Assembly: GCA_965230425.1 (NCBI GenBank)
Contig: CBDDKW010000024.1
Coordinates: 141,727-205,726 of the forward strand
Reading direction: 5' to 3'
DNA: 64,000 nucleotides
DNA from: Gammaproteobacteria bacterium
GTDB lineage: Bacteria > Pseudomonadota > Gammaproteobacteria > UBA1113
The translations under genes were made by a program, and so were the position numbers. The notes under the pieces were generated by a model. It was not told where the DNA came from and did not search any database. It saw only the letters and a program-made list of their open reading frames with translations. Every line of letters begins with the position of its first letter. The first letter of the stretch is position 1. Positions 10,144 through 54,025 of the stretch are shown here, one piece after another.

Positions 10144-11430
10144 ATGACAAAATCTCAGCAAATCTTTGATCGAGCACAACAATTTATCCCAGGCGGGGTG
10201 AATTCACCCGTGCGCTCCTTTGCTGCCGTTGGCGGTAATCCCCTGATTTTCAGCAAGGGCGAAGGCGCCTATATGGTGGATGTGGATGGTCAACGCTATA
10301 TCGATTACGTTGGCTCTTGGGGTCCTCTCATCCTTGGTCACTGCCATCCGAAGATTATGCAAGCAGTGCATACTGCTGTAGACAATGGCCTTAGCTACGG
10401 CGCATGCTGCGAAACCGAAGTTAAATTAGCCGAGAAAATCTGCAAAATCATGTCCCATATTGAACAAGTGCGTTGTGTAAACTCAGGTACTGAAGCTACC
10501 ATGTCAGCGATCCGCTTAGCTCGTGGTTACACCGGTCGCGATAAAATCATCAAATTTGAAGGCTGCTATCACGGCCACAGTGATGCACTATTAGTAAAAG
10601 CAGGCTCTGGCGCTCTCACCTTTGGTGTCCCCAGCTCACCTGGCGTACCAGCTAGTTTTACTGAACATACCCTGGTGGCAACCTTTAATGATCTTGACAG
10701 TGTGCAAGCGCATTTTGAAAAACATGGCGATAATATCGCCTGTATTATTCTAGAACCTGTCACTGGCAATATGAATTGTGTCCCTGGCGAGCCAGCGTTT
10801 ATTCAAGGCTTACGCGATCTGTGTGATCAATACAAAACCGTATTAATTTTCGATGAAGTCATGACCGGATTCCGGATTGGCCTAGGCGGTGCTCAGGCCT
10901 ATTACGGCATTACCCCAGACCTAACAACGCTTGGTAAAGTCATCGGTGGTGGTATGCCTGTGGGCGCCTTTGGCGGCAAGCGTGACATTATGCAATATTT
11001 GGCTCCTGTTGGCCCGGTTTATCAGGCAGGCACACTATCGGGGAACCCCATTGCCATGGCTGCAGGCTTAACTAATTTAATTGAAATTTCTAAGCCGGGT
11101 TTTTATGAACAATTATCTCAAACTACCGAGCAATTAATGCAGGGATTACAAGAGCGTGCACAAGCAGCGAATATACCGCTCGCTACGCAGGCAATTGGTG
11201 GCATGTTTGGGATCTTCTTTACCCAGGAACCTAGCGTAAATTACTTCGAACAAGTCATGGCCTGCAATTTAGAACACTTTAATCGCTTCTTCCATGGAAT
11301 GCTCAATGCCGGTGTATATTTTGCACCCTCTGCCTATGAAGCAGGCTTTGTATCAAGCAGCCACAGTCCCGATGAAATTGAAACCACCTTGCTTGCTGCA
11401 GAGCAAGTTTTTAATACATTAACCGATTGA
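10144..11430 (+). CDS. hemL: Glutamate-1-semialdehyde 2,1-aminomutase
   Basis: Class III PLP aminotransferase. [26 protein letters not shown] is the canonical HemL N-terminus. An RBS (aagga) precedes the internal ATG at 10144. Confidence 0.93.
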
Positions 11431-13025
11431 GGATTAATATGTCTGACAACCCACTTTTGAGCCATTTATTAACTGAGGACTTCTATCCTCATCCTGTAAA
11501 ACACTTAGAATTGATCGAGACACATATCTCTTGGGTTATTTTAACCGGTGATTATGTCTATAAAATTAAGAAACCTTTAGATTTAGGTTTTTTAGATTTC
11601 TCTTCCTTAGAAAAGCGTCAACACTATTGCAATGCAGAAGTGGAATTAAATAAAACCTTAGCACCGGATATTTATTTAGATGTATTACCTATTACCGGTA
11701 GTGAAACCGCACCTGAATTAAATGGCAGCGGTGATGCCATTGAATACGTCATTAAAATGCGCGAGTTCTCCCAAGAATGTTTATTCACAGAATTATTGTC
11801 TCAGAATAAATTACAAGCCACCCACATACTCCAAACAGCCACAGCATTGGCTGATTTTCATAGTAAGGTACCTTGCGTTGCGGATGACTCACCCTACGGT
11901 ACCGCTGAGCAAGTCCACGAACCTGTTGTACAAAATTTCGATCAAATTGCACCAATGCTTGATCTTGATCGACAATTAGCACAGTTACAGGCTTTATCTC
12001 ATTGGGCTAATCTCGAACATAAGAAAATAAAAACAGAATTAAGCAAACGTCGTGAAAATAATTTCATCCGTGCCTGTCATGGCGATGTGCATTTAGGTAA
12101 TATTGCCTTAGTGGATGATGCGGCGATGATTTTTGATTGCATTGAATTTAATGAAGCTTTTCGTTGGACTGACACTATGGCAGATTTAGGTTTTCTTGCC
12201 ATGGATTTAGAAGATGTGGAACGCCCTGATTTAGCCAATCTTCTCGTCAATCAATACTTACAAACCAGTGGTGATTATCATGGTTTGAGTGTTTTACGCT
12301 ACTATAAAGCGTACCGCGCCGTAGTCCGCGCTAAAATCACCTTATTCCAATTACAAGATGATACCTTATCAGATACTGCACGCTTAGAGCTAGAATCAAA
12401 ATACCAACGCTGTGCTGATCTTGCTGATTACTATAGAGAACCGGCACAACCTCTATTATTAATCACTCATGGTGTGGCTGCCTCAGGCAAATCAACCCTC
12501 AGTAATGCGCTCGTTTCTACACTGGGTTGTATATCTCTCTCCTCTGACTTAGAACGTAAACGTATGCTCAATCTTGATGCTCATGCCAAAACTAATTCCC
12601 CGCTCAATCAAGGTATCTATAATGAAGACATCAATCAACAAACTTATGAGCGTTTGTATGCGTTGGCTAAACAGCTCATCAGTTATGGCTATCCGGTGAT
12701 CGTTGATGCGACTTTCATTAGACAAGAACATCGAGCGATGTTTAACCAATTAGCTCAAGATCTGCAAGTACCACACGCTATACTGCACTGCCAAGCATCA
12801 GCAGAAACATTAGAAAAATGGTTGCATACGCGCCACCAGCAAGGCAATCATCCCTCTGAAGCAAGGCCAGATATCTTGCAAATGCAGCAGGACACTATGG
12901 ATAGTTTAGATAACACTGAAAAAACTTATACAATCGCTGTGGACATGGAACAATTTCATGATATAAATACAGTCCTTGAGGAATTAAGTCGATTGTTCAG
13001 TAAAGAAAATGAGGCTGTCGCATAA
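11427..13025 (+). CDS. Bifunctional aminoglycoside-phosphotransferase-like kinase domain plus P-loop (AAA_33/zeta-toxin-like) kinase domain protein
   Basis: The N-terminal half has APH/Ser-Thr-kinase-fold motifs ([13 protein letters not shown] ... [13 protein letters not shown]). The C-terminal half has a Walker A motif ([16 protein letters not shown]). The start overlaps the hemL stop (ATGA). Confidence 0.7.
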
Positions 13026-16907: not shown

Positions 16908-19900
16908 ATGAGGATAATAACAGTGGCAAAGCATCTTCCTGCAGTGATTGCTGCAATTAAATCGACCTATGAAAATAATAAAGAAGTTATTGAAAGTAAT
17001 GAAAATACCAGTGAACTTATCCAGCTACTCGAACAAGACTCACCTCAATTTATTGATATTGTTCGCCATCTCTATGCGCTGCGCAACCAAACCACAAATG
17101 CTACTATTACAAAACTCACAAGAATCATTTTTTGTGCAGGTCATAAATATCCTTTGTCGTACCTAGCTAAACCAGAAGCTTCATTAAATCAATATGAACT
17201 ACAGCAGATTGAACAAAGTTATCAATTATTTGAAGCATGTGGAAACCAGGATAACAAATTTGAGACGCTACTAGTATTCATACTTAGTCTGTACAACATC
17301 GATGATTGTCAAATCGTCACAATGGACCAAACGGCAGAAAATACTCAAAAATTCCAGCAAGGTATTATCAAGATACTTCGGCTAGCCAATACCCCTGCTA
17401 GCAGAGATCATGAAGATAAAAATGAATATTCTTATCTATTGCGAATTATGATTTATGCTGATGCTACTGCAACTATTGATTTCCTAGATTGTTTTTGTAA
17501 AAAAGACGGATGTTACCAAACCACGGTCGAACAATTTTTTCAAAATGAGCGCATCATAGAGCCATTATGCACAGAATTTTTAAGTCAATTCAAAAGTATC
17601 ACCTCAAAACATGGCCGTTTATTACTGGCGAAACATCAACTATTGAGCCAGCTACACAGTATTCAGAATATAGAAGTTGATGAACCCTTTGCTGACATAT
17701 TCGCTCAATGCTCCGGCTATCAGATTAAGCAAGCAATAGCTAACATACAAAATCATCCTGCTTCAAACAGGAACACAGAACTATTATCTGCAATCATTGC
17801 ACGTTACCAATCACTTTGGCCTGAAAATGCCAACCCTATTCTTGAGAACAATGTAGATAATCTAGCGTTGCTTGTACGTTATTTCTATCTAATAGATGTT
17901 GTATTTAATCCTATACGCAACTTTATGAACTTCACTGCCCCTATTCCGAACACATTACCAGCAGATAAAACATCAACAGTTAGCCAGGTACTCTGTCTGC
18001 ATAATATGGATTGCCCAGTTACTCGTGCACCTTTACTGCTAACTGAAGATACTCCGCTAGTAACTGAGCGTAAATACATAAAGACCGCACAAACATATGT
18101 TATTACAGCCATAGACGTCATCGAAGAATTGATACAAATCATGGATAGCTTAAACGCAAAGATACAGTTACAAAATCAACTCTTGAAAAAATGCATAGAT
18201 TATTTTCACGCACTATTAGATGCCATACGATGGAATGATGGAAGTACATCACAAGAAACTTATGAAGGTTATATTCGTAATCTTCTGGAAGCAATGATGC
18301 CCTTATTAAAATCGAATAAGACACAAGAGCTTGCCACTGATCATTCTGAATTACCTAGCGATGCACTTAAAACTATCTATAAATCTTTAGTCAGCAAGCT
18401 ACCGCTAATGCAGTTGACTAGTCCATTTATAGACAATTTAGTAAATATATTCGACTGTTATCAAGATTTAACCATTTGGTCATTGCTTAAGAAATTTAAA
18501 CAGAATGAAACAAGATCAGATACTGTTCAAAAATTATTAGCGCATTTGAAGGTATCACCCAACTCAACGCCGCAGATGCAAGTTAATTATGCACAAGTGC
18601 TTTATCATGCGCATAAATATCACAGTTACGTACTCACACGAGATGACCTTAGCCAGATACTTATTTTTTGTCCTGAGCTTAGACAACAACTACGAGATGA
18701 CTTTAAAGATGATAGCAAGCAAACAGGCCGCTTAGTCTATTTGTCTTATATGATACAGACCTTTTATGGTGAGGATCTTGAAGCAGATACTGAATTTAAA
18801 GAAATAGCAGATGCACTTAGTAAACAAACAACCCTGGCAGCAAAATACTATGGACAACACCGCCCCACATTATTCAAATTAACTCAGCGCAGTACTTTCT
18901 TAAGCTTCGTCGGAAAACAGCAATTAGCAGATGAGAAATTTAGTGATGTCGATAATATTCAGACATTCCGTCAAATGATGTTGGATGTGCTACGCGAAGA
19001 TATTCCTCTCAGTGCCGAGCTCATAAGCTACGATCTTGTGAGTGAGTGCCCAACTGGTAGAGAACGCACACCAACAGACTTTATGACTCGTGAATTCTTA
19101 GGAGAGACTGCATCAACAACCATGCTATGGGCCTTGGTTATTATGCGTCATTACGCACTAGAAGATGAAAACCCAGATAATGAATTTATTCAAGCCTGTG
19201 AACATAACATCGTTGCATTATTGCATGAAAGTATGGCTACTCGCTTTAAACCATCACCCTATATGGACCTCCCAGGCTATTTAGATGCCCATTTAGCCGA
19301 GTGCTTAGTAAACCTATCTGACAATGAACGTGCTCATATCCCTAATACAGAGGAACTCATCACTGGCCATTATCAACGTGCATTTACGCGAGGTTATCAG
19401 ACGAGGCAGCTTGCTAATCCCGCTCACTTTCCTCGCTATATCGATGTGCTAACAAAAGAAGTCTCACTATCACACTGGCAGATGCTGCAGGCCCTGTTTG
19501 CAGAATGTATACGCGCTGACGAACAAGCTAGCTTTGACAATGAAATATATGCCAAATTAATTATTTATTATAATACCTTAAGGAGCCAACACCCCCAGCA
19601 TCAACGCTTGCATGATATTGAAGCTCAGCTAGATCAGCTAGGCGCCGCACCTTATCAAACATCAGAAAGCTCGGCTCCCCTTGGTCATTGTCGCCTCAGA
19701 TTTTATTTGGCATTGATTTGCATGAATATCTATTGCGATACAATTTTAGATGAAATACTGGCTATACGAACAATCACAGATGAAACACAACAACGAGTTA
19801 TCTTAATTGATATACTGCAGCAATTAGTTGAAAACTATGAACGGTTTAACTTTGATGCGACCAAAGTATCTCAATCACTCGGCAAACTTTTTAAGGCTAT

Positions 19901-33255: not shown

Positions 33256-34347
33256 ATGGGATTTAAATGTGGCATCGTTGGCTTACCTAATGTGGGTAAA
33301 TCCACCCTGTTTAATGCACTGACAACGGCCGGTATCGCCGCAGAGAACTATCCCTTTTGTACCATTGAGCCTAATGTGGGGGTTGTGCCGATGCCCGATC
33401 CGCGTTTGGATCAACTCGCCGCCATTGTTAATCCACAAAAAATCATCCCAACCAGTATGGAGTTCGTTGATATTGCTGGCTTAGTGGCGGGTGCCGCCGA
33501 TGGTGAAGGCTTAGGTAATAAATTTCTTGGCCATATCCGCGAAACCGACGCCATTGCACAAGTAGTACGCTGTTTTGAAAATACCGATATTGTCCATGTC
33601 TCCGGTCAAATTGATCCGATTAATGATATTACCACCATTAATACCGAACTTGCTTTAGCCGACCTCGACACCGTTGAAAAAGCACTACAACGCGTGGGTA
33701 AAAATGCCAAAAGTGGCAACAAAGAGGCAGTACGTGAAAAAGAGCTACTAACACGAGTGAAAGCACACTTAGACACCGGTGCCATGGCTCGCACATTAAC
33801 ATTAAGCGATGAAGAAAGTGTAACGATAAAATCACTGCACTTACTCACACAAAAGCCAACCCTGTATATTGCCAACGTTAACGAAGATGGCTTTGAGAAT
33901 AATCCGCATTTACAAAAAGTCATGGATCACGCCGCACAAGAAAATGCCCAAGTAGTACCTGTCTGTGCCGCCATTGAAGCAGAGCTAGTTGAACTTGAAG
34001 AAGCCGATAAACAAGAATTTCTTGCCAGTATTGGCCTAGAAGAGCCGGGCTTAAATCGTATTATTCATGCGGGTTATAAGCTCTTAGGCTTAGAAACTTA
34101 TTTTACCGCCGGTGTTAAAGAAGTCCGCGCTTGGACCATCACAGCACACTCCACCGCACCACAAGCCGCAGGCCGTATTCATACCGACTTTGAGCGCGGC
34201 TTTATTCGTGCTGAAGTCGTCAGCTTTGCCGACTATATTCAATACCAGGGCGAACAAGGTGCCAAAGAAGCGGGCCGATTACGCGCAGAAGGTAAAGAAT
34301 ACATTGTCCAAGATGGTGATGTGATCCACTTCTTGTTTAATGTCTAA
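33256..34347 (+). CDS. ychF: Ribosome-binding ATPase YchF
   Basis: Has an OBG-type G domain ([18 protein letters not shown]) and a TGS domain. The rplY-pth-ychF order is conserved. Confidence 0.95.
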
Positions 34348-34430: not shown

Positions 34431-34507
34431 GGCTATGTAGCTCAGCTGGTTAGAGCACAGCACTCATAATGCTGGGGTCGGTGGTTCGAGTCCACCCATA
34501 GCCACCA
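34431..34507 (+). tRNA. tRNA-Met (elongator, anticodon CAT)
   Basis: GGCTATGTAGCTCAGCTGGTTAGAGCACAGCACTCATAATGCTGGGGTCGGTGGTTCGAGTCCACCCATAGCCACCA is very similar to E. coli metT. A TTGACA -35 element lies at 34390-34395. Confidence 0.9.
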
Positions 34508-34655
34508 TTCATTTTGTGTCCTTACCGGAGACAGCATTCACTGCCCACTTCAATACCCCTGTAGATGATAAAGAACTAGAAGAGCCAACTTTGAGCCACA
34601 GGATGACGCAGCTTATAAACTGCAAGTCATCCATTAAGCAACTCAGCCTATGCTT

Positions 34656-35357
34656 TTAAGCTTCTGCTCCAGCAGCCGCACCATGCTCATAGCTCTCTAG
34701 GTAAGAGGCTGTATCATGGCAGTGTTTTGTTGACATATTTTTACCAGGACGCACGAATAAAGAATGGTATTGCTCCATGAATTCGCGGTTAGGATATTCT
34801 TTTTCGCTCAGGCTATCGCTCGTTTCAGACATATCAGATTTACCTCCAATTTTTGCCTGTATACGAGAAGAATAGCCCACAATATTGCGAGTGACAATTT
34901 CCTTTAAGCAATAAGCTTTAAATGCCTCTACAAAACGCTCTAATTTTGCATATCTGCGGTGGGCGAGCACATTCCACACTTGCCATTTTGCGGGCATATA
35001 ATTAAAGCAAAAATGCTCTAATAACCGGGCAGCATGCATTTGGTCGATATAACCATAGGCAAAAGAATGTACAATCTTTAACAGCTCTTTTTTAGGCTTA
35101 TCGGCACAGGATAACTGTAACATTTCCTCTAAGGACATCTGCGCTGCTGGTAGTGGTGCGAGAAATGCAGCGAGTAACTCTTGCTGTGTATTAGACAAGT
35201 ACGTTGCTTTTAATTGCACAAACCTATCACTTTGCATTTTACTTTTGGTATTTGCTGTAGACGTAGCCTTAGCGCTGTCTTCGCAGCTAGTACTTGAGCC
35301 TTTGAGTGTCTCCAGCAAAAAGCTCCGTCTCATTGATTGTCTCCCTATTGTTGTCAT
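34656..35357 (-). CDS. Hypothetical protein (233 aa), Ser/Thr-rich N-terminus; effector-like orphan
   Basis: A clean ORF with no recognisable motifs. It is located at the island edge next to tRNA-Met. Confidence 0.6.
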   Translation of the reverse strand: MTTIGRQSMRRSFLLETLKGSSTSCEDSAKATSTANTKSKMQSDRFVQLKATYLSNTQQELLAAFLAPLPAAQMSLEEMLQLSCADKPKKELLKIVHSFAYGYIDQMHAARLLEHFCFNYMPAKWQVWNVLAHRRYAKLERFVEAFKAYCLKEIVTRNIVGYSSRIQAKIGGKSDMSETSDSLSEKEYPNREFMEQYHSLFVRPGKNMSTKHCHDTASYLESYEHGAAAGAEA

Positions 35358-35606
35358 TTTTTTTCCTTATTTTATCCGTCATTATTTTCCATTTTTACTT
35401 TAACAATCATGGCCATAAACTGGTTTTTGAAAGTAGGATAAAAAACATAGAACCTAGTCTGCAATAACTCAAGTTAGCTTCTTGGGTAAATGCTGTGGAT
35501 AAAATGTGTTTTTCCTGAGAGTTTTAAAAAAACTGTAAATAATTTAGATCTTTTGGCAAAAGAGCTATAAAATGCACAGCCTTTTCATAAAAACAAGGAT
35601 AACAAA

Positions 35607-36278
35607 ATGAAAATCTTCAACCGTACGATCGCACTGTTAATTGGCTTATTTGTAAGCATCTCTACTGTCTATGGCGCTGAGCCTGAAAACTTAGATACGG
35701 CTAAACAAGCGCTGGTTAACTATCATGACAGTGGTGAGTATATGCAAGATCTCAATGCAAAAATTATGCAAACAGAACTGTATTTACTCCAGCAAGTCAA
35801 AGCAAACCAACAATCGGCCCATCCACAAAAATTGGCAATCGTATTAGATATCGATGAAACAGCGTTATCTAATTATGCGCGTATGTATAAGATGGACTTT
35901 GGTGGGACTCGACAAGCACGAGAAGCCATTATGGATAAAGCGCAATTACCTGCTATCGCCGCAACCTTGGCACTCACCAAACTAGCGCAAGAAAATCATG
36001 TGGCAGTATTTTTCATCACGGGCCGCCCAAGCGACATGCGAGACAGTACGATTAAAAACTTGCATAGAGCAGGTTTTAAAGACTGGCAGGGTTTAAGCCT
36101 AGCACCGAATAAATACACACAACCTTCTATGAGCACCTTTAAAACTGCAGCTCGTAAAGCGATTACGCATCAAGGTTATGACATAATTTTGAATATCGGT
36201 GACCAGGATAGTGATCTAAACGGTGGTTATGCTAAAAAAACGATTAAACTACCTAATCCTTTTTACTATACGCATTAA
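35607..36278 (+). CDS. Secreted class B/C acid phosphatase (HAD superfamily, subfamily IIIB)
   Basis: Has a signal peptide, the DxDxT motif (VLDIDETALSNY) and C-terminal GDQDSD. Both are hallmarks of HAD IIIB acid phosphatases. Confidence 0.75.
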   Translation: MKIFNRTIALLIGLFVSISTVYGAEPENLDTAKQALVNYHDSGEYMQDLNAKIMQTELYLLQQVKANQQSAHPQKLAIVLDIDETALSNYARMYKMDFGGTRQAREAIMDKAQLPAIAATLALTKLAQENHVAVFFITGRPSDMRDSTIKNLHRAGFKDWQGLSLAPNKYTQPSMSTFKTAARKAITHQGYDIILNIGDQDSDLNGGYAKKTIKLPNPFYYTH

Positions 36279-36386
36279 TAAGATTGATTCTTTGCTGACA
36301 TAAACAATAGCCTGTGATTAGCAGGCTATTGTGCTGTTACTTGATATTAACTTTAGCGACGATGAGCGCGTGCCAAAGGATAAATC

Positions 36387-37592
36387 ATGAAATTTCGTCA
36401 ATTACTACCTATTTATTTTGTAATATTTTTGAGTTTCTTGGGTTATGCACTGACCATAACCATGTATATCCCTATGCTCTTGAGTCCACACTTTAATTTT
36501 TTACCAGTGGAAACATCATTACCACTACGCATTGCTCTGACTGGATCCCTGCTTGCTACGTACCCACTTGGCCAATTAATTGGCTCACCCATAATAGGCA
36601 AGCTTTCCAATAACTTTGGACATAAGCGTGCATTATTAATCAGTCTATTCGGTTGTGCCCTTGGATTCGCAGGTATCGCTATAAGTATTCGATTTCAGCA
36701 AATCAGCCTACTCTTTTTCAGCTCTTTGTTCACTGGAATGTGTGAATCTAATATGCAACTCTCTTTAGCTATTATTACTGATAGAACTGAAGAACCTGCA
36801 CTAAAGACGAAATTGATTAATAATCTATATGTTGCTTGTAGCTTAGGCTATATCATCGGCCCACTACTCGGTGGCACTAGCGGTATGCTACTTACTTATA
36901 GTATCCCCTTCTGGATAACTGCTCTCTGCATTGCTGGTCTAATTATCTGGGTAAGCTATAGCTTAACTGAACATAAGATGACTTCTGAAGCTTCCTCTGG
37001 CATACGTTTTCATTCATTTACAGCTCTCAAATCAATATTTCGTGAAAAAAGACTTCTTCCTTTCTACTTACTTAATTTTCTCATATTTTTTGCCGCACGA
37101 GGGATTTATCGAATGGTGCCCTTATATATTGTTGACAAGTGGCATCCATCATTACTAACCTACTCTCTATTAATTTACTCTGTAGCTTACGTTTGTTTTT
37201 TAACAACTTCGTTCATATTAGGAAGAATTGTAACACGTTTCTCACTACCTAAATTATTGAGTAGTTTATTATTAATCGGCGGCATACTCATACTCAGTCT
37301 TGTCATCCCCTACGATTTTAGACAAGTTTGGGTAATTTACGTAATAGCAATGATACCCATTGTAATGACTATACCTATTTGTAGTGCTTGGCTATTCCAG
37401 CAAGCAAAAGATGATAAACAAAATACAGCAGATGCAAGTAACTATGCTTTACTCACACTCGCAGAGTCTTCTTCAGCAGCCATCGGCGGACTCATTGCAG
37501 CACTATTAGTACCATTATCTATTGTGACTATGGGCATTATCTTATTAATTACAGGCTTCATTGTTATTTGGCTCAGTCGGTACGATGTATAG
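36387..37592 (+). CDS. MFS transporter (12 TM)
   Basis: 401-aa polytopic hydrophobic protein with an MFS-like loop 2-3 (GKLSNNFGHKRALL). Confidence 0.8.
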   Translation: MKFRQLLPIYFVIFLSFLGYALTITMYIPMLLSPHFNFLPVETSLPLRIALTGSLLATYPLGQLIGSPIIGKLSNNFGHKRALLISLFGCALGFAGIAISIRFQQISLLFFSSLFTGMCESNMQLSLAIITDRTEEPALKTKLINNLYVACSLGYIIGPLLGGTSGMLLTYSIPFWITALCIAGLIIWVSYSLTEHKMTSEASSGIRFHSFTALKSIFREKRLLPFYLLNFLIFFAARGIYRMVPLYIVDKWHPSLLTYSLLIYSVAYVCFLTTSFILGRIVTRFSLPKLLSSLLLIGGILILSLVIPYDFRQVWVIYVIAMIPIVMTIPICSAWLFQQAKDDKQNTADASNYALLTLAESSSAAIGGLIAALLVPLSIVTMGIILLITGFIVIWLSRYDV

Positions 37593-37896
37593 ACAAGGTA
37601 CTTAGGAAACGCTAATTGTTACTGGGCCTCGATCAACGCGCCCATGTAATATACTGTAACTACACTAAATCTAGATACTCTAGTTTTCAGTAGGTATCCA
37701 AAATGTGATGATCTGTCCCTCAATTCCCCTAACCATATGATATTTCTACTAAATCTTTTATTCTTCTTCAATATGAACTATATATTGTATGTCAATTTTT
37801 AATTATAGAATAAATTATATTGCATAAAATATAGCAAAACTCATTGATTGGTATATAATGTAAGTAAAATTTTATAATTTTGTTAAATTTTTACAT

Positions 37897-38703
37897 ATGA
37901 AATATAGTAATTCAACAGATTTTGCTCGCAAAGGACTTGGTAAAACACAGGCAAGACACTACTCTAGCTTGCTCAGAAATACTAATGGCACCATAACTGT
38001 CAGTGAAGCAGCTAAAATTTTACGCCAAACTAATAGCAAAACTTCTATGTTTCTGTCATTACTGGTAAAGAAAGGTTGGTTAAAACGTATTGGATATGGT
38101 GTTTACATTCCAATTCCGATTGAGTCTTCTACAACAGAGTATATAGCTAATGAACCATTTCTTATCGTAAATGAACTATTCTCACCTTGCTATATAGCCG
38201 GTATGAATGCAGCTAATTATTGGGGGTTAACCGACCAATTGTTTCGAACAACAACGGTCATGACTCAAAAACTTATTAGAGATCGTAATCCAATAATTGC
38301 GGGGAATGAATATAAAATACATACTATTAACTCGCGATATTTCTATGGGCTTAAATCAACTTGGATAGACTCCGTAAGAATAAAAATTTCAGATCCGACT
38401 CGCACGCTTGTGGATATGGGTATTTTTCCTCAATTTTGTGGTGGTATTCGATTTATAGAAGATGTCCTGATAGCGTATTGGCAGTCTGAACTTAAAGATC
38501 TCCAACTCTTGATGCAATATTTGGAGCAATCAGAAAATGGTACAGCCTTTAAACGTATTGGCTACCTTACAGAAAAGCTTTTTCCAGATGAAAAAAAATT
38601 TATTCAGTTCTGTCAAAATAATTTAACACAAGGTTATTCAAAAATCGAACCATCTATCCAACAAACTAAATTAAGTACCAGATGGCGATTATGGATAGCT
38701 TAA
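37897..38703 (+). CDS. AbiEi-type antitoxin (type IV TA / abortive infection), winged-helix N-terminus
   Basis: ITVSEAAKILRQTNSKTSMFLSLLVKKGWLKRIGYGVYIPIP is an AbiEi_4-like wHTH with the R.G.Y motif. It lies immediately upstream of the AbiEii gene. Confidence 0.7.
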   Translation: MKYSNSTDFARKGLGKTQARHYSSLLRNTNGTITVSEAAKILRQTNSKTSMFLSLLVKKGWLKRIGYGVYIPIPIESSTTEYIANEPFLIVNELFSPCYIAGMNAANYWGLTDQLFRTTTVMTQKLIRDRNPIIAGNEYKIHTINSRYFYGLKSTWIDSVRIKISDPTRTLVDMGIFPQFCGGIRFIEDVLIAYWQSELKDLQLLMQYLEQSENGTAFKRIGYLTEKLFPDEKKFIQFCQNNLTQGYSKIEPSIQQTKLSTRWRLWIA

Positions 38704-38723
38704 ATTATAAATAGTGGTGCATT

Positions 38724-39587
38724 ATGATCAAAAAAAATGAAATTCAAAGAGTAGCACAGGCTTTCTCATTACCTCAGAACTCCATTGAAAAAGATTATAT
38801 TCTCAGTTGGCTTTTAGCTGGTATCTATAACAGACATGCGTTAAAAAACCAATGGGTTTTTAAAGGAGGTACTTGTATAAAAAAATGTTTCATCGAAACT
38901 TACCGATTTTCAGAAGATCTTGATTTTACTATCTTAGATCCTAAACAGATTGACACCTCATTTTTACAGTCTGAATTTCAAGCCATTAGTGAGTGGATAT
39001 ACGAACACTCAGGCATTGAAGTGCCATTCCATGAAGTAAAATTTGAAAAATACATTAATCCTAGAGCACAAGAATCTATTGAAGGTAAAGTTCCATATAA
39101 AGGGCCTCTGCAGAGACGAGGCAACAATCCTAATGTTAAATTAAATTTAACATTTGATGAAATCCTCGTTACTCCTCCAAAACCCACACCAATTTTGCAT
39201 CACTACACTGATAGTGAAGATTTTGATAATCTAAAAGCACTATCATATTGCCTCGACGAATTATTTGCAGAAAAAATGAGAGCTTTTATTGAACGCACTC
39301 GTCCGCGTGATTTATTTGATATTATCAGCATATTTTCACATGATGAACTTGTACTAAATAAAGGTAACGTACAATCTATCTTCATCAAAAAGTGCCAGCA
39401 TAAAGGTATAAAAAATATCAAAACTGAGCTACTCAATACAGAACTTAAAAAAAATGAGCTTTTTAGTGACTGGGAATATATGTTGTCACATCAGATAGCT
39501 AATTTACCACCTTGCGAAAACTATTGGAGTAAAATACCCTCTTTATTTGGCTGGCTAACAGATGGATTAAATGATGACACTACGTAG
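38724..39587 (+). CDS. AbiEii/AbiGii family nucleotidyltransferase toxin (DUF1814)
   Basis: Has motif I (FKGGTCIKKCF), motif II (YRFSEDLDFTI) and motif III (ELFAEKMRAF), all characteristic of AbiEii NTases. Confidence 0.8.
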   Translation: MIKKNEIQRVAQAFSLPQNSIEKDYILSWLLAGIYNRHALKNQWVFKGGTCIKKCFIETYRFSEDLDFTILDPKQIDTSFLQSEFQAISEWIYEHSGIEVPFHEVKFEKYINPRAQESIEGKVPYKGPLQRRGNNPNVKLNLTFDEILVTPPKPTPILHHYTDSEDFDNLKALSYCLDELFAEKMRAFIERTRPRDLFDIISIFSHDELVLNKGNVQSIFIKKCQHKGIKNIKTELLNTELKKNELFSDWEYMLSHQIANLPPCENYWSKIPSLFGWLTDGLNDDTT

Positions 39588-39616
39588 CAAACTGTTGTGT
39601 CATATATTACTCCCAA

Positions 39617-39671
39617 ATTACTTCTGGATTACTTCTGGATTACTTCTGGATTACTTCTGGATTACTTCTGG
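39617..39671. repeat. Perfect tandem repeat (attacttctgg)x5 with an 11-bp unit, directly downstream of the AbiEii gene
   Basis: Five identical head-to-tail copies plus a partial sixth (att). Confidence 0.95.
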
Positions 39672-39760
39672 ATTTAACTATTAACAGTCTACCAAACCGG
39701 AGCTTAAGCCTAATTTCGCACATAGTAAATTGCTCGTGTAGCGAAAAATCATGGGCAATT

Positions 39761-41875
39761 TCAGCCTATCATGCCATACTGTTCCTTACTACCCAACCAA
39801 CGCTCAACAATACACTCTGCTGCTTGTGGTTGCTGTGCTAATAACTCTTGGGCTACGCGCTGTACTTTAGGTAACAAGCGTTGATCACGCACAATATTAG
39901 CAATGCGCATATGGATGTTACCTGTCTGGCGGGTACCTAGGACTTCACCAGGGCCGCGTAACTCTAAATCACGCTGAGCGATTTTAAAACCATCATTGGT
40001 TTCACGTAAAATACCTAAGCGTGACTTTGCCATTTGTGATAAGGGCAATTGGTATAACAGCACGCAATGACTTTCCACTGAGCCACGGCCAACACGCCCA
40101 CGTAGTTGATGTAACTGTGCCAGACCTAGGCGTTCTGGGTTTTCAATAATCATTAAACTGGCATTGGGTACATCCACCCCTACTTCGATCACAGTGGTTG
40201 CAACCAGTAAATCCGTCTCGCCAGCTTGGAAGCTTGCCATAATGGCTTCTTTTTCTGCTGGTTTTAGGCGTCCATGAATTAAAGCAACTTTTAAGGCAGG
40301 TAATTGCTCTTGTAAGTCTGCTGCTGTGGCTTCTGCGGCTTGGCATTGTAAAACTTCAGATTCTTCAATCAGCGTACACACCCAATAGGCTTGACGTTTT
40401 TGTTCGCAGGCTTGGCGTACTCGCTGGATCACTTCACCGCGCTTTTCATTGGAGATAGCAACAGTCGTCACTGGTGTGCGCCCTGGCGGTAATTCATCAA
40501 TCACTGAGGTATCTAAATCCGCATAAGCAGTCATGGCCAGTGTACGAGGGATCGGCGTAGCCGTCATAATTAACTGATGAGGATGGATGCTGGCTTGCTC
40601 ACCTTTTTCTTTTAAAGCTAAGCGCTGATGCACGCCAAAACGATGTTGCTCATCAATCACGACTAAAACAAGATCAGCAAATTCCACATCCTTTTGGAAC
40701 AAAGCATGTGTGCCTACAACCACTTTCACTTCTCCTGCAGCGATTTGCGCTAAAATGGGCTTGCGTTGTTTAGCGGTCATTTTACCAGATAACCAAGCAA
40801 CTTTAATATCTAGCTCTGCCAGCCAGCGTTCAAAGGTTTTAAAGTGTTGTTCCGCTAATAATTCAGTAGGTGCCATTAACACTGCTTGCTTACCTTGCTC
40901 TATGGCTTGCAACATGCTCATGGCGGCAACAACCGTCTTACCCGATCCTACGTCGCCTTGCACTAAACGTAGCATGGGTGAAGCTTGGGCAAGATCCGTG
41001 GCTATTTCGTCGACCACACGCCCTTGAGCTGCGGTTAACTTAAATGGTAAAGAGGCGAGAAACTTCTCTTGTAAGCTACCTTGGCCCGTTAACGCACATG
41101 CCTGTTGATGTTTTACCCTATCGCGCAAGCGTCGTAAGCTAATTTGATGCGCAACTAATTCTTCAAAGGCTAAGCGCTGTTGCATGGGATGGATGCCTTC
41201 GAGTAGCTGCTCTTGATTAGCATCGGGTGGTGGGCAATGTACATATTCCACCGCTGCTGCCAGCGGTGCCAGATCATATTGTTCCAGCAAGACCTGGGGA
41301 AAATGTTCTTGTAACACCGCGCCATTTTTTAAAAACTGTAATGCCTGATCAGCTAACTGGCGTAATGAGTGCTGTGATAACCCTTCCGTCGTTGGATAAA
41401 TAGGCGTGAGGGTTTCGGCCACAGGCATAATTTTATCAGCATCAACGAAACGGTATTCTGGGTGTATCATTTCAAATCGACTGGCACCACGGCGCACTTC
41501 ACCAAAACAACGAATACGCCGACCTACCTTTAAATTATCGCGTTGCGCTCCGCTAAAATGAAAAAAGCGTAAACCTAAACGCCAACCTTTTTCTTGGATA
41601 GTACAATAAAGACTCATTTTGCGGCCACGCTTGGTTTCCGTACTAAGAATTTCCCCCTCGACCACGACAAATTCACCGAGCTGTACATCAGCCATGGGGG
41701 TGACTCGGGTACGATCTTGATAACGTAGAGGCAAATGAAATAACAAATCTTGTACAGTATGTAGATCACGTTTAGCCAATTGTTCGGTGAGCTTGGCACC
41801 CACGCCACGCAAAACCGAGACGGGCATCTTATCCAGAGATTGTTGTGCTGCTGTCGACAGGGTTGGTTTGGCCAT
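39761..41875 (-). CDS. recG: ATP-dependent DNA helicase RecG
   Basis: 704 aa with a wedge domain plus SF2 helicase motifs (GDVGSGKT, VIDEQHRFGV, QLRGRVGRG). Confidence 0.95.
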   Translation of the reverse strand: MAKPTLSTAAQQSLDKMPVSVLRGVGAKLTEQLAKRDLHTVQDLLFHLPLRYQDRTRVTPMADVQLGEFVVVEGEILSTETKRGRKMSLYCTIQEKGWRLGLRFFHFSGAQRDNLKVGRRIRCFGEVRRGASRFEMIHPEYRFVDADKIMPVAETLTPIYPTTEGLSQHSLRQLADQALQFLKNGAVLQEHFPQVLLEQYDLAPLAAAVEYVHCPPPDANQEQLLEGIHPMQQRLAFEELVAHQISLRRLRDRVKHQQACALTGQGSLQEKFLASLPFKLTAAQGRVVDEIATDLAQASPMLRLVQGDVGSGKTVVAAMSMLQAIEQGKQAVLMAPTELLAEQHFKTFERWLAELDIKVAWLSGKMTAKQRKPILAQIAAGEVKVVVGTHALFQKDVEFADLVLVVIDEQHRFGVHQRLALKEKGEQASIHPHQLIMTATPIPRTLAMTAYADLDTSVIDELPPGRTPVTTVAISNEKRGEVIQRVRQACEQKRQAYWVCTLIEESEVLQCQAAEATAADLQEQLPALKVALIHGRLKPAEKEAIMASFQAGETDLLVATTVIEVGVDVPNASLMIIENPERLGLAQLHQLRGRVGRGSVESHCVLLYQLPLSQMAKSRLGILRETNDGFKIAQRDLELRGPGEVLGTRQTGNIHMRIANIVRDQRLLPKVQRVAQELLAQQPQAAECIVERWLGSKEQYGMIG

Positions 41876-41967: not shown

Positions 41968-43104
41968 ATGACAAAAAAACTTGCAACTGCTGATGACTCA
42001 TCTTGTCTATTATTTTGGCGTTACCGCACGGACGACCCTGAATCTATCCATAAAAAGATTATTGATCCTGACACTGGCCCTTACGTGTTCTTTCGTCGCG
42101 TCAAAACGCCGATTCAAGCGCGTCATGCACAATTAATGGACCATAGCACTATTCCCACTGTATTTTTACATGGTAGTCCCCATGTAGATAATTATGCCAA
42201 AACCCACACAGGCGCTGGCATTGTTGATTTTGACCGTGCCCATGATGGACCTTATACCTGGGATTTACTGTGTTTAACCATCGCCATGTCGCTACGCAAC
42301 CCGGATGCCATTGCAAACTTTCTGGAACCACAAGCCATCAAGGTATTAAAAGAAGGATATCTGCAGGGTTTATTACAAATGCGCAGTGATTATCACCGTT
42401 TCCAAGCCTTAGAAAACATCGAGCCAAAGAAGTGGGAGATGAATACCCGTGCTTACTTAAAAGCGGGTAAAAAATGGGCAAAACAATTAGATAAGTGCGC
42501 CATCGATTTAGCAGACCCCATGGCGAATGAAGTTTTCCAACAGTATTTATTGTCTCGTCAAGATACGAGCTTACTCAAAACTCATTGTTTAGAGAAAATG
42601 GCACACTGTCATGGCACCTTTGGGCGCCCACGCTTTTTATATGCCTTAATCGCCAAAGATAAAACTGAAGATGATATTCTCATTGATATTAAACATACAC
42701 GTGACTATATGATCCCTGCCTGGTCACATAATCAGTGGTATCGTCATGGCTTTGATCATCAAGCAAAACGTATGATCACCGCTTCACAGTTATATGCACC
42801 TAGCTGCTCCTTACGTGAAGGCTTTGCGAATGTGAACGGCATTGATTATTGGGGACGGCAAATTCCAACCTTGAATCGCAAACCGAACAAACTCTTAGAT
42901 AAAGATGAGATTGAAGACTTTGCTTATGCGGGCAGTACTCAATTAGGTCGTGGCCATAGTTTATCCTTGGCACAAATTGGTTCTGATGACATGGTCAAAC
43001 ATGTCCATGAAAACTTCGACACTCTGATTGAATGTGCACGTCAAATTCAACAGGAAATGTTAGCTAGCTGGCGCAATTATTGTGATCGTTATAAACAGGC
43101 TTAA
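41968..43104 (+). CDS. Hypothetical protein with a phosphotransferase/kinase-like (APH/CAK fold) signature
   Basis: HGSPHVDNYAKTHTGAGIVDFDRAHDGPYTWDL resembles the HGDxHxxN catalytic loop plus the DFD/DFG metal-binding motif of APH/eukaryotic-like kinases. Confidence 0.5.
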   Translation: MTKKLATADDSSCLLFWRYRTDDPESIHKKIIDPDTGPYVFFRRVKTPIQARHAQLMDHSTIPTVFLHGSPHVDNYAKTHTGAGIVDFDRAHDGPYTWDLLCLTIAMSLRNPDAIANFLEPQAIKVLKEGYLQGLLQMRSDYHRFQALENIEPKKWEMNTRAYLKAGKKWAKQLDKCAIDLADPMANEVFQQYLLSRQDTSLLKTHCLEKMAHCHGTFGRPRFLYALIAKDKTEDDILIDIKHTRDYMIPAWSHNQWYRHGFDHQAKRMITASQLYAPSCSLREGFANVNGIDYWGRQIPTLNRKPNKLLDKDEIEDFAYAGSTQLGRGHSLSLAQIGSDDMVKHVHENFDTLIECARQIQQEMLASWRNYCDRYKQA

Positions 43105-52663: not shown

Positions 52664-52891
52664 AAATCCATACCTCACTGTAGTAAAAAACCACTAAAAC
52701 TTGATATTTTGGGGTGGCGTCAGTATATCTGAAAAATATTCAGCCGTCGCCTATCTTATGCACAAAAAAATATTGCATTAATTGATATAACAATTATAAT
52801 TCTGTGATATATTCTGATTGATTACAAAATAATGTGAAAAAATATAGCGCATAATTGATAAATGCTTGCTAAACTCAACAGTAAGGATAGA

Positions 52892-54025
52892 ATGATGGCA
52901 TCAGCAATAGACACGCTCACTATCACAAATGAATTGAAACAAGGTGGCTTCGATCAGCGTCAAGCTGAAGTACAAGCTAAGATATACTTAAATATTATGC
53001 ACTACTTAATATCTGACCAAATAGCAAACAAAGACGATGTGAAACATATCGAAAATACGTTTAAAGACGATGCAAAACACATCGAAATCATGTTTAAAAA
53101 TGATATCAATGCCCTACGTAAGAACAATGAAGAAAGCATACGCCAGCAATTTAAGCAACAAAATCTCATCTTCCAAAGTCAATTGCAAAGCTTTAGCACT
53201 GAATTTCAAGGCCAACTAAAAAGCCTTAGCAGCGAAGTTGATGCTAAAATCGCTAAACTTGATAGCAAAATCACAAATCTCGTCGTCCAATCTGAAACTA
53301 AACTCGATACAAAACTCGACGGCATCAACAACAAGATGGATGAGGGGTTTACTGATACCAACAACAAAACGGATAAGAAACTTACAGACACCAACAATAA
53401 AATGGATGAGAAATTTACTGCATTCAACAGCGAGATGGATAAGAGATTTGCTGAAGTTCACAGCAAAATGGATAAAAAATTCGTCGAAATCGACAATAAA
53501 TTCATCCAGCTTGAAAAGAAAATGGATGAGAAATTTACTGCCTTCAACAACGAGATGGATAAGAGATTTGCTGAAGTTCACAGCAAAATGGATAAAAAAT
53601 TCGTCGAAATCGACAATAGATTCATCCGGCTTGAAAAGAAAATGGATGAGAAATTTACTGCCTTCAACAACGAGATGGATAAGAGATTTGCTGAAGTTCA
53701 CAGCAAAATGGATAAGGGATTTGCTGAGGTTCATGGCAGAATGGATAAAAAATTCGCCGAAATCGACAATAGATTCATCCGGCTTGAAAGCAAAATGGAT
53801 AAAAAGTTCGCCGAAATCGATAAGAAATTCGCCCAAATCGATGATCACTTCATCAAGATTAACACACAGATTTCACAACTTACCACACAGATCTCACAAC
53901 TAGGTGAAAAAATTGTCCAACAAGAAATGAATATTTATCGCAAATTAATCAAATTCACATTTTGCTGCATCACAGCCGTCACCGGCATAAGTGGCACCAT
54001 CGGTTATCTGCTTCACAGCTTATAA
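52892..54025 (+). CDS. Coiled-coil protein with a DUF1640/XhlA-like N-terminus, tandem 40-aa repeats and a C-terminal transmembrane anchor
   Basis: The N-terminus (AIDTLTITNELKQGGFDQRQAEVQAKIYL) resembles DUF1640. The repeats have the form KMDEKFTAFNNEMDKRFAEVHSKMDKKFVEIDNRFIRLEK. The C-terminal hydrophobic segment is FTFCCITAVTGISGTIGYLL. Confidence 0.7.
   Translation: MMASAIDTLTITNELKQGGFDQRQAEVQAKIYLNIMHYLISDQIANKDDVKHIENTFKDDAKHIEIMFKNDINALRKNNEESIRQQFKQQNLIFQSQLQSFSTEFQGQLKSLSSEVDAKIAKLDSKITNLVVQSETKLDTKLDGINNKMDEGFTDTNNKTDKKLTDTNNKMDEKFTAFNSEMDKRFAEVHSKMDKKFVEIDNKFIQLEKKMDEKFTAFNNEMDKRFAEVHSKMDKKFVEIDNRFIRLEKKMDEKFTAFNNEMDKRFAEVHSKMDKGFAEVHGRMDKKFAEIDNRFIRLESKMDKKFAEIDKKFAQIDDHFIKINTQISQLTTQISQLGEKIVQQEMNIYRKLIKFTFCCITAVTGISGTIGYLLHSL
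53332..53860. repeat. Intragenic tandem repeat with a 120-bp period: two perfect-register copies at 53401-53520 and 53521-53640, a third partial copy, and flanking degenerate 33-bp sub-repeats
   Basis: The copies at 53401-53520 and 53521-53640 differ at only a few positions. The third copy keeps about 75 nt and then diverges. Confidence 0.9.

Follow-up and report, generated by a model that had tools for sequence, protein, structure and literature searches.

The closest described counterparts of the gene pair examined here are the AbiE systems of Streptococcus agalactiae and Lactococcus lactis (structures 6Y8Q and 9HLO) and the MenA-MenT pairs of Mycobacterium tuberculosis. The pair itself, abiEi followed by abiEii, lies at positions 37897 to 39587 of a 64,000-nucleotide (nt) stretch of a gammaproteobacterial genome (contig CBDDKW010000024.1), which we call the window and in whose numbering all coordinates are given. 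In AbiE, the antitoxin AbiEi represses its operon via repeats in the promoter, and its C-terminal domain neutralizes the toxin AbiEii (PMC3985639). The S. agalactiae toxin is defined by motifs I and II (hG[GS]x15DhD), III (KLxAaxxR) and IV (+DxxD) (Dy et al., PMC3985639), and mutagenesis has shown that its toxicity needs G49, R63, D67, D69, K173, R180 and D192 (PMC3985639). For the extension of tRNA 3' ends, MenT3 uses CTP (PMC7450476), MenT1 uses CTP and MenT4 GTP (PMC10435456), and S. agalactiae AbiEii prefers UTP over CTP (preprint 10.64898/2026.01.19.700257). In S. agalactiae AbiE, MenAT1 and MenAT3, the antitoxin induces auto-phosphorylation of a Ser/Thr that precedes the DxD (PMC11375011; same preprint), the modified residue of S. 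agalactiae AbiEii being T65 (2026 preprint 10.64898/2026.01.19.700257).

The window pair is almost certainly a module of the AbiE family, of the COG5340-COG2253 (DUF1814) pair type, and the proposal of an AbiEi/AbiEii module in an earlier note on this DNA is supported by hidden Markov model (HMM) searches, by intact motif residues and by an independent fold comparison. The layout given in that note, two open reading frames (ORFs) separated by 20 nt, is borne out by the ORF list and by the stop and start positions. Both genes are on the + strand with the antitoxin gene first: abiEi (37897-38703) has an ATG start and a TAA stop at 38701-38703 and encodes 268 amino acids (aa), and abiEii (38724-39587), also with an ATG start, encodes 287 aa. 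The chosen start codons give N-termini that match the family consensus, and both proteins are full length compared with their homologues.

AbiEii is, by family, a predicted DUF1814/PF08843 nucleotidyltransferase toxin of the DNA polymerase beta (Pol-beta) type. It matched Pfam PF08843 with E=1.1e-31 and 111 bits (cutoff 22.5) over profile positions 1-229 of 238. The PADLOC models gave 5e-107 for AbiEii and 1e-76 for AbiEi, the latter over aa 13-267; the best toxin model, which has 396 positions, was matched only over positions 1-278. The toxin reproduces the exact pattern and spacing of the S. agalactiae motifs, with motif I at K47-G48-G49 followed by 15 residues to D65, motif II as R61-F-S63-E-D65-L-D67-F, motif III as K184MRAFIER191 overlapping F-A-E-K184, and motif IV as R195DLFD199. 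The three motifs listed by the earlier note (GG, RFSEDLDF and FAEK) were all found, at K47-G48-G49, in the stretch R61-F-S63-E-D65-L-D67-F and at F-A-E-K184; motif IV was absent from that list. In 120 relatives, the motif residues G48, G49, R61, D65, D67, K184, R191, R195, D196 and D199 do not vary, and neither does S63. When a profile of the family was aligned to S. agalactiae AbiEii (9HLO_B, residues 10-250, E=5.6e-10), S63 fell on T65, and a local RFSxDLDF motif is common to the window toxin and MenT4, where S63 corresponds to S67. The window toxin has a Ser at the type VII phospho-acceptor position, two residues before the first catalytic Asp.

AbiEi is a COG5340 protein with a winged helix-turn-helix (wHTH) domain at its N-terminus (about aa 16-72) and a C-terminal AbiEi domain at about aa 87-268. 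Its Pfam scores are borderline: PF09407 (AbiEi_1) was a bare pass (22.6 bits, cutoff 22.2; aa 99-226), and the wHTH family PF13338 (AbiEi_4) scored 24.1 bits, just below its cutoff of 25 (aa 24-71). Hence, of the two Pfam families that the earlier note had named, PF08843 was recovered and PF13338 narrowly was not. Taken together, the Pfam and PADLOC scores go well past what chance would produce. Structure models built with AlphaFold2 (AF2) from 45-sequence alignments had mean predicted local distance difference test (pLDDT) values of 89.6 for AbiEi and 88.9 for AbiEii. In Foldseek searches against the PDB, the only significant matches of the AbiEi model were S. agalactiae AbiEi (6Y8Q, 1e-7) and Rv2827c (1ZEL, 1.6e-7), and the AbiEii model matched MenT4 (1.8e-10), TglT/MenT3 (3.9e-8, template modelling (TM) score 0.67) and MenT1 (9.7e-5). 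In S. agalactiae AbiEi, a loop with D85, E86 and I87 inserts into the toxin active site. The conserved AbiEi loop W109-x-L-T-[DE]-Q-[IL]-F116 is a candidate for such a toxin-inserting loop in the window protein.

Compared with the S. agalactiae and L. lactis systems, the window pair has the same gene order, a COG5340 wHTH antitoxin and a DUF1814 toxin with motifs I-IV. The residue two positions before the DxD is shared as well, as Ser in the window and Thr in S. agalactiae. With both proteins considered, M. tuberculosis MenA4-MenT4 (Rv2827c-Rv2826c; 1ZEL, 6Y56) resembles the window pair best in structure, with a TM score of 0.64 over about 290 columns for Rv2827c, which is of similar length to the window antitoxin. 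In Foldseek, identity to the window proteins is only about 15-16 % for both S. agalactiae AbiEi (6Y8Q) and MenT4. MenA3-MenT3 (TglT) and MenA1-MenT1 share the toxin fold, the conserved D, K and D counterparts and the phospho-acceptor Ser/Thr, and presumably also the activity on tRNA 3' ends. They differ in that MenA1 is an unrelated small antitoxin and MenT3 is larger and prefers CTP and tRNA-Ser. Closest of all are uncharacterised pairs of the same subfamily in a Candidatus Berkiella sp. (GCA_050247135.1) and in metagenome-assembled genomes (MAGs) of Legionellales, which show 47-61 % full-length identity, the same gene order and the same upstream boxes. The window pair differs from these by its combination of a short toxin, a truncated AbiEi tail, a 20-nt spacer, Asn141 and the lack of neighbouring mobility genes.

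Searches in a large protein collection returned more than 4300 toxin homologues, the best 53 % identical, and 327 antitoxin homologues, the best 61 % identical, and both window proteins were singletons at 90 % identity. Names attached to these homologues include 'predicted nucleotidyltransferase component' and 'transcriptional regulator of viral defense system', and the named source organisms include Candidatus Berkiella and Legionellales MAGs. All relatives whose loci were fetched have the antitoxin-then-toxin order, and full-length pairs of this architecture are found among them. Of the 119 closest toxin relatives, 55 are long forms (380-490 aa), most of which have a WYL domain (PF13280) at the C-terminus. 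The window toxin is a short form and lacks this domain. The pair is best described as a divergent member of an ordinary and common kind of AbiE. Its value is that of one divergent, canonical AbiE cassette from a poorly sampled lineage, in a family with thousands of members.

Upstream of abiEi, positions 37778-37896 (+ strand) form a candidate promoter/operator, recognized by its repeats and by conservation across loci. It contains box A (about 37778-37803, CTATATATTGTATGTCAATTTTTAAT), box B, an inverted partial copy (about 37826-37840, AAATATAGCAAAA), and box C (about 37849-37876, TGGTATATAATGTAAGTAAAATTTTATA). Boxes A and C are direct copies 73 nt apart with 19 of 26 positions identical. Box C has an extended -10-like element, TGnTATAWT, 16 nt downstream of the TAGCAA in box B. 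The self-similarity of the region (39/59) exceeded that of all 300 shuffles (mean 31.7, maximum 37). The boxes occur at the same distances from the ATG in the loci of nine relatives, whose AbiEi proteins are only about 51-61 % identical. In an almost gap-free alignment of these ten loci, mean pairwise identity over -125 to -1 was 55 %; a control stretch more distant from the gene on the upstream side reached 38 %, and shuffling followed by realignment gave 43 ± 1.6 %. Furthermore, boxes A and C of one and the same locus are more alike than boxes A and C of different loci (p about 0.01). It is plausible from these sequence patterns that the region is a promoter overlapped by candidate AbiEi operators.

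The principle, repeats in the promoter region, is that of S. agalactiae AbiE, and the layout differs: the S. agalactiae operator consists of two 23-bp inverted repeats 3 bp apart (IR1 and IR2), whereas the window has two direct copies of about 26 nt that are 73 nt apart plus the inverted partial copy. With the conserved boxes, a defined piece of DNA is available on which autoregulation by AbiEi could be tested for this subfamily. A metagenome scan with the pattern ATATAGCAAN{8,16}TGSTATAT, which is partly palindromic and too loose to be informative, found AbiEi downstream at none of 80 loci among the matches listed.

A mechanism can be proposed by analogy with S. agalactiae AbiE and M. tuberculosis MenAT1/3/4. 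The two genes would be co-transcribed from a promoter embedded in the upstream boxes, and the winged helix-turn-helix of AbiEi would bind these boxes and repress its own operon. Free AbiEii would extend tRNA 3' ends, which would block aminoacylation and stall translation, resulting in bacteriostasis. The C-terminal domain of AbiEi would neutralize the toxin, likely by inducing auto-phosphorylation of Ser63 in a type VII mode. We consider it likely that the pair works as an active toxin-antitoxin module along these lines. For neutralization by S63 phosphorylation the analogy tips the balance slightly in favour; the alternative would be a non-phosphorylating mode as in MenA4/MenT4. The designation type IV used in the earlier note needs correcting, since a preprint (10.64898/2026.01.19.700257) moves S. 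agalactiae AbiE to type VII and no mode of neutralization is known for MenA4/MenT4, the structurally closest solved pair. A type label for the window pair is for these reasons provisional, and the 'type IV' label given to AbiE in databases is to be treated in the same way.

A number of findings weigh against this account. No NCBIfam model scored above its cutoff, and the equivalog model for TAA_AbiEi, NF047376, gave 17.1 bits where 150 are required. With such a score, the window AbiEi belongs to a different AbiEi subfamily from the one described by that model; as far as sequence can tell, this narrow equivalog is the only defining feature of AbiE that is missing. Neither phmmer nor a profile search linked AbiEi to solved AbiEi structures at the sequence level, and the S. 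agalactiae protein, at 195 aa, is shorter than the 268 aa of the window antitoxin. Both proteins deviate at highly conserved columns, the toxin at 11 of 100 and the antitoxin at 8 of 66, which is more than in any, or nearly any, relative; this excess would fit a long branch or some relaxation of constraint. A simple sigma-70 consensus scan called no promoter at boxes B and C. Its sole + strand site upstream of abiEi (37880-37908, 9/12) runs into the start codon, and promoter-like sites were fewer than in shuffles. A consensus scan also found no terminator for the operon.

The reference systems themselves add two points to this side. MenT4, the closest structural match, is a GTP user of weak activity that is not phosphorylated by its antitoxin and whose mode of neutralization is unknown (PMC10435456; PMC11375011), and mechanisms cannot simply be carried over between it and the window pair in either direction. 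In a panel of 32 coliphages, S. agalactiae AbiE protected against none, so that a defence role is not guaranteed.

The last two points concern the proteins' own sequences. AbiEi stops 2 residues past the conserved RWRLW, whereas its relatives continue for 6-14 more residues (VPxxWK...). Beyond the TAA, the abiEi frame stays open over 7 codons and closes with a TGA at 38725-38727, which together with the overlapping abiEii ATG forms ATGA. Because this read-through ends in the toxin start codon, the 20-nt spacer (spacer with read-through, 38704-38727, + strand) appears to be a relic of an ancestral ATGA gene overlap. In nine relatives (L001, L002, L084, L086, L089, L090 and L214-L216) the two genes do overlap, by 4-17 nt, and in four others (L085, L087, L088 and L091) they are 4-13 nt apart. 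In the window, a weak GGTG Shine-Dalgarno-like element is found 4 nt before the abiEii ATG.

In the toxin, codon 141 (39144-39146) encodes Asn, whereas 116 of 120 relatives (97 %) have Asp there. Residue 141 is placed centrally in a beta-strand, and the pattern around it is h[DE]h-like. If it were the third catalytic carboxylate, toxin activity may be reduced. The catalytic carboxylates of MenT3 are D80, D82 and E146. Candidates for the third one in the window toxin are E108, D145 and E146, which are conserved, and position 141, which is Asn; the profile search from AbiEii did not reach MenT3, and no equivalent of E146 was mapped. The same replacement is found in P0027, P0031 and P0084, and the four Asn variants are not nearest relatives of each other. 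The change thus recurred, with independent origins in three or more further relatives that are intact in other respects, and is probably tolerated, although it still counts as a caveat. Asn141 and the tail-less AbiEi are natural variants that could show which residues of DUF1814 and COG5340 proteins are dispensable.

The biological role of the module may be phage defence or addiction, which are not mutually exclusive. The explanation that competes best is an active module whose role is selfish addiction of acquired DNA or stress-linked growth control rather than phage protection, which we regard as possible but doubtful. AbiE systems are reported to stabilise plasmids and integrative and conjugative elements (PMC3985639; PMC11062541). 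In line with this, relatives of the window pair occur beside integrases, AlpA, primase genes and other toxin-antitoxin pairs, and also on plasmids. We found relatives on 53 plasmids, with up to 45 % identity and annotated as AbiEii/AbiEi; other relatives have integrase fragments, HipBA, Phd, Fic or another AbiE pair in their vicinity. The toxin had no match in phage genomes, and IMG/VR viral contigs contained only two AbiEi relatives, 32 % identical, so a phage-borne cassette was rejected as an origin. The failure of S. agalactiae AbiE in the 32-phage panel and the solitary position of the window module, outside any defence island, point the same way. On the other hand, L. lactis AbiE and the related RlegTA and SanaTA pairs do give phage resistance, and one close relative sits beside an AbiTii gene on a P4-like island that also carries integrase, AlpA and primase genes. 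Moreover, neither an integrase nor an att repeat nor a mobility gene flanks the window copy, and there is little left for it to stabilise.

A second explanation is that the pair is an attenuated or decaying relic, with a toxin weakened or inactivated by D141N and a truncated AbiEi that survives as a regulator or has not yet been disrupted, so that no growth arrest would follow. The Asn at a 97 %-Asp position, an antitoxin that has lost its conserved tail, the missing ATGA overlap, a number of deviations at conserved columns that is the highest or close to it, the longest branch and an identity to relatives of at most 53 % (toxin) and 61 % (antitoxin) would all agree with this. Decay of such pairs is also seen in one relative (L089), where the toxin is split, and regulatory roles beyond the toxin-antitoxin pair are described for an AbiEi of Mesorhizobium huakuii (PMC8436566). 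However, both ORFs of the window are full length with starts that fit the family consensus, all residues found essential by mutagenesis are intact, most deviations are conservative (I/L, F/Y, D/E), the D-to-N change recurs in relatives that are otherwise intact, and the upstream boxes have been kept. We therefore judge a relic to be unlikely and retain the active module as the preferred reading.

The weakest alternative, a housekeeping or resistance-type nucleotidyltransferase next to an unrelated regulator, would draw on the Pol-beta fold being common to aminoglycoside nucleotidyltransferases and to CCA-adding and poly(A) polymerases and on weak Foldseek matches of the toxin model to ANT(2'') and Pol mu (E about 0.06), but it is highly improbable given that all strong specific matches are DUF1814 toxins, that the family-specific motifs III and IV are present, that the partner is AbiEi-like in both sequence and fold and that the gene pairing is kept in every relative examined.

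A further-reaching idea is that the window pair belongs to a distinct AbiE clade with its own regulatory logic, made up of short toxins of about 280 aa with the long WYL-fused forms as a sister group. This reading, in which the clade would be common in Legionellales-like and other environmental Gammaproteobacteria and would have upstream, in place of IR1/IR2, two direct repeats at a distance of 73 nt that both contain an inverted repeat, seems to us improbable. If it were true, the missing antitoxin tail, the lost ATGA overlap and the recurring D141N of the window copy would mark one evolutionary way in which toxins of this clade become attenuated once a chromosome has captured them.

The base composition of the locus sets it apart from its surroundings. 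The whole AbiE module with its flanking intergenic DNA forms a low-GC cassette of about 2.2 kb (37593-39760) between the end of a gene for a major facilitator superfamily (MFS) transporter and the convergent end of recG. GC content is 27.6 % in the upstream intergenic region, 35.1 % in abiEi, 33.4 % in abiEii and 36.4 % in the downstream intergenic region, compared with 41.3 % for the window and 47 % for recG. The downstream intergenic region showed no significant folding (z -0.97), and no Rfam family was detected in the region. The statement of the earlier note that the pair lies in the most AT-rich part of the window was confirmed, with the 1-kb bins over 37001-39000 (GC 0.335-0.338) being the lowest of 64; in a finer profile, the dip extends from about 37,600 to about 39,750 and so coincides exactly with the interval that separates the neighbouring genes. 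The window has 53 ORFs with 130 aa or more, and of these abiEi and abiEii have the two lowest GC contents (z = -2.7 and -2.2); the z value for third codon positions (GC3) is about -2.2. The low GC of the cassette and the island context of its relatives are consistent with horizontal acquisition, and the cassette was probably acquired in this way and is now integrated in the chromosome.

Upstream, the neighbours are ychF (33256-34347), tRNA-Met, an orphan ORF and genes for a class B acid phosphatase and the MFS transporter; downstream follow recG (39761-41875, convergent), a DUF2252/APH-like gene and another MFS transporter gene. The wider window contains tyrS, hemA, deaD and sufB, genes for TetR and LysR regulators and for efflux pumps, as well as two large orphan ORFs, and looks like an ordinary, non-degraded chromosome. 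Ten neighbouring or unannotated proteins yielded no other defence genes in PADLOC, only coiled-coil noise for ZorA and JetC, and the adjacent genes had no integrase or transposase domains and no mobility functions. YchF has best relatives of about 75 % identity, its top named match being from a Legionellales MAG; the lineage is poorly sampled, and the acid phosphatase is likewise a singleton at 90 % identity. A recG-based scan of genome contigs from a species-representative set returned only relatives of at most 61 % identity (59-61 % for the best) and provided no empty-site comparison, and a toxin-based scan of the same contigs gave no match.

The remark in the earlier note that such a module is unusual for an obligate or intracellular-type genome was not supported. 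AbiE is reported from the obligate intracellular Candidatus Paracoxiella cheracis (PMC12039232) and from mycoplasmas (PMC8562856). Close relatives of the window pair are found in Berkiella and in Legionellales MAGs, and the window itself is not degraded.

An island integrated at tRNA-Met (34431-34507) was considered and rejected, as there is neither a downstream repeat of the tRNA (only a chance 12-mer in recG) nor an integrase. From the tRNA onward (34431-39760), GC content changes stepwise, from 42 % in the orphan ORF to 41 % in the acid phosphatase gene, 37.5 % in the MFS gene and 33-35 % in the AbiE genes, and then to 47 % in recG. A larger island reaching from tRNA-Met to recG is possible but unsupported.

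Several relatives have a second AbiE pair or a fragment of one nearby, at 3822-4581 and 5659-6749 of L089, 11076-11766 of L001 and 3661-3831 of L216. In L089, the cognate toxin is split into pieces of 140 and 89 aa beside a HipBA pair. These second pairs and fragments, together with the split toxin, show that AbiE cassettes cluster with other toxin-antitoxin genes and do decay.

A perfect 11-nt tandem repeat with 5.3 copies (ATTACTTCTGG) occupies positions 39617-39674, beginning 30 nt past the stop codon of abiEii. It is unique in the window, where no other perfect array exceeds two copies. In the locus of the closest AbiEi relative (L084), unrelated perfect repeats of 12 and 11 nt flank the AbiE pair (5783-5816 and 7750-7782).

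Some other features of the window were recorded. APH-like phosphotransferase signatures are found at 41968-43104 (DUF2252 and APH, beside recG) and at 11427-13025 (APH and an AAA_33 kinase), and neither gene matched a defence model. The two large orphan ORFs, at 7501-9723 (740 aa) and 16908-22073 (1721 aa), matched nothing in Pfam or PADLOC under the thresholds applied. Large orphan proteins of this kind are often seen as effectors in host-associated Gammaproteobacteria. The ORF at 52862-54025 is built of 33-nt (11-aa) tandem repeats. Tandem Repeats Finder (TRF) reports arrays at 53030-53098 and 53325-53748, after which come two 21-nt arrays up to 53901. The weak apolipoprotein-like, coiled-coil matches of this ORF are the source of the spurious ZorA/JetC matches, and the overlapping ORFs on both strands at 52862-54025 are probably artefacts of the repeats.

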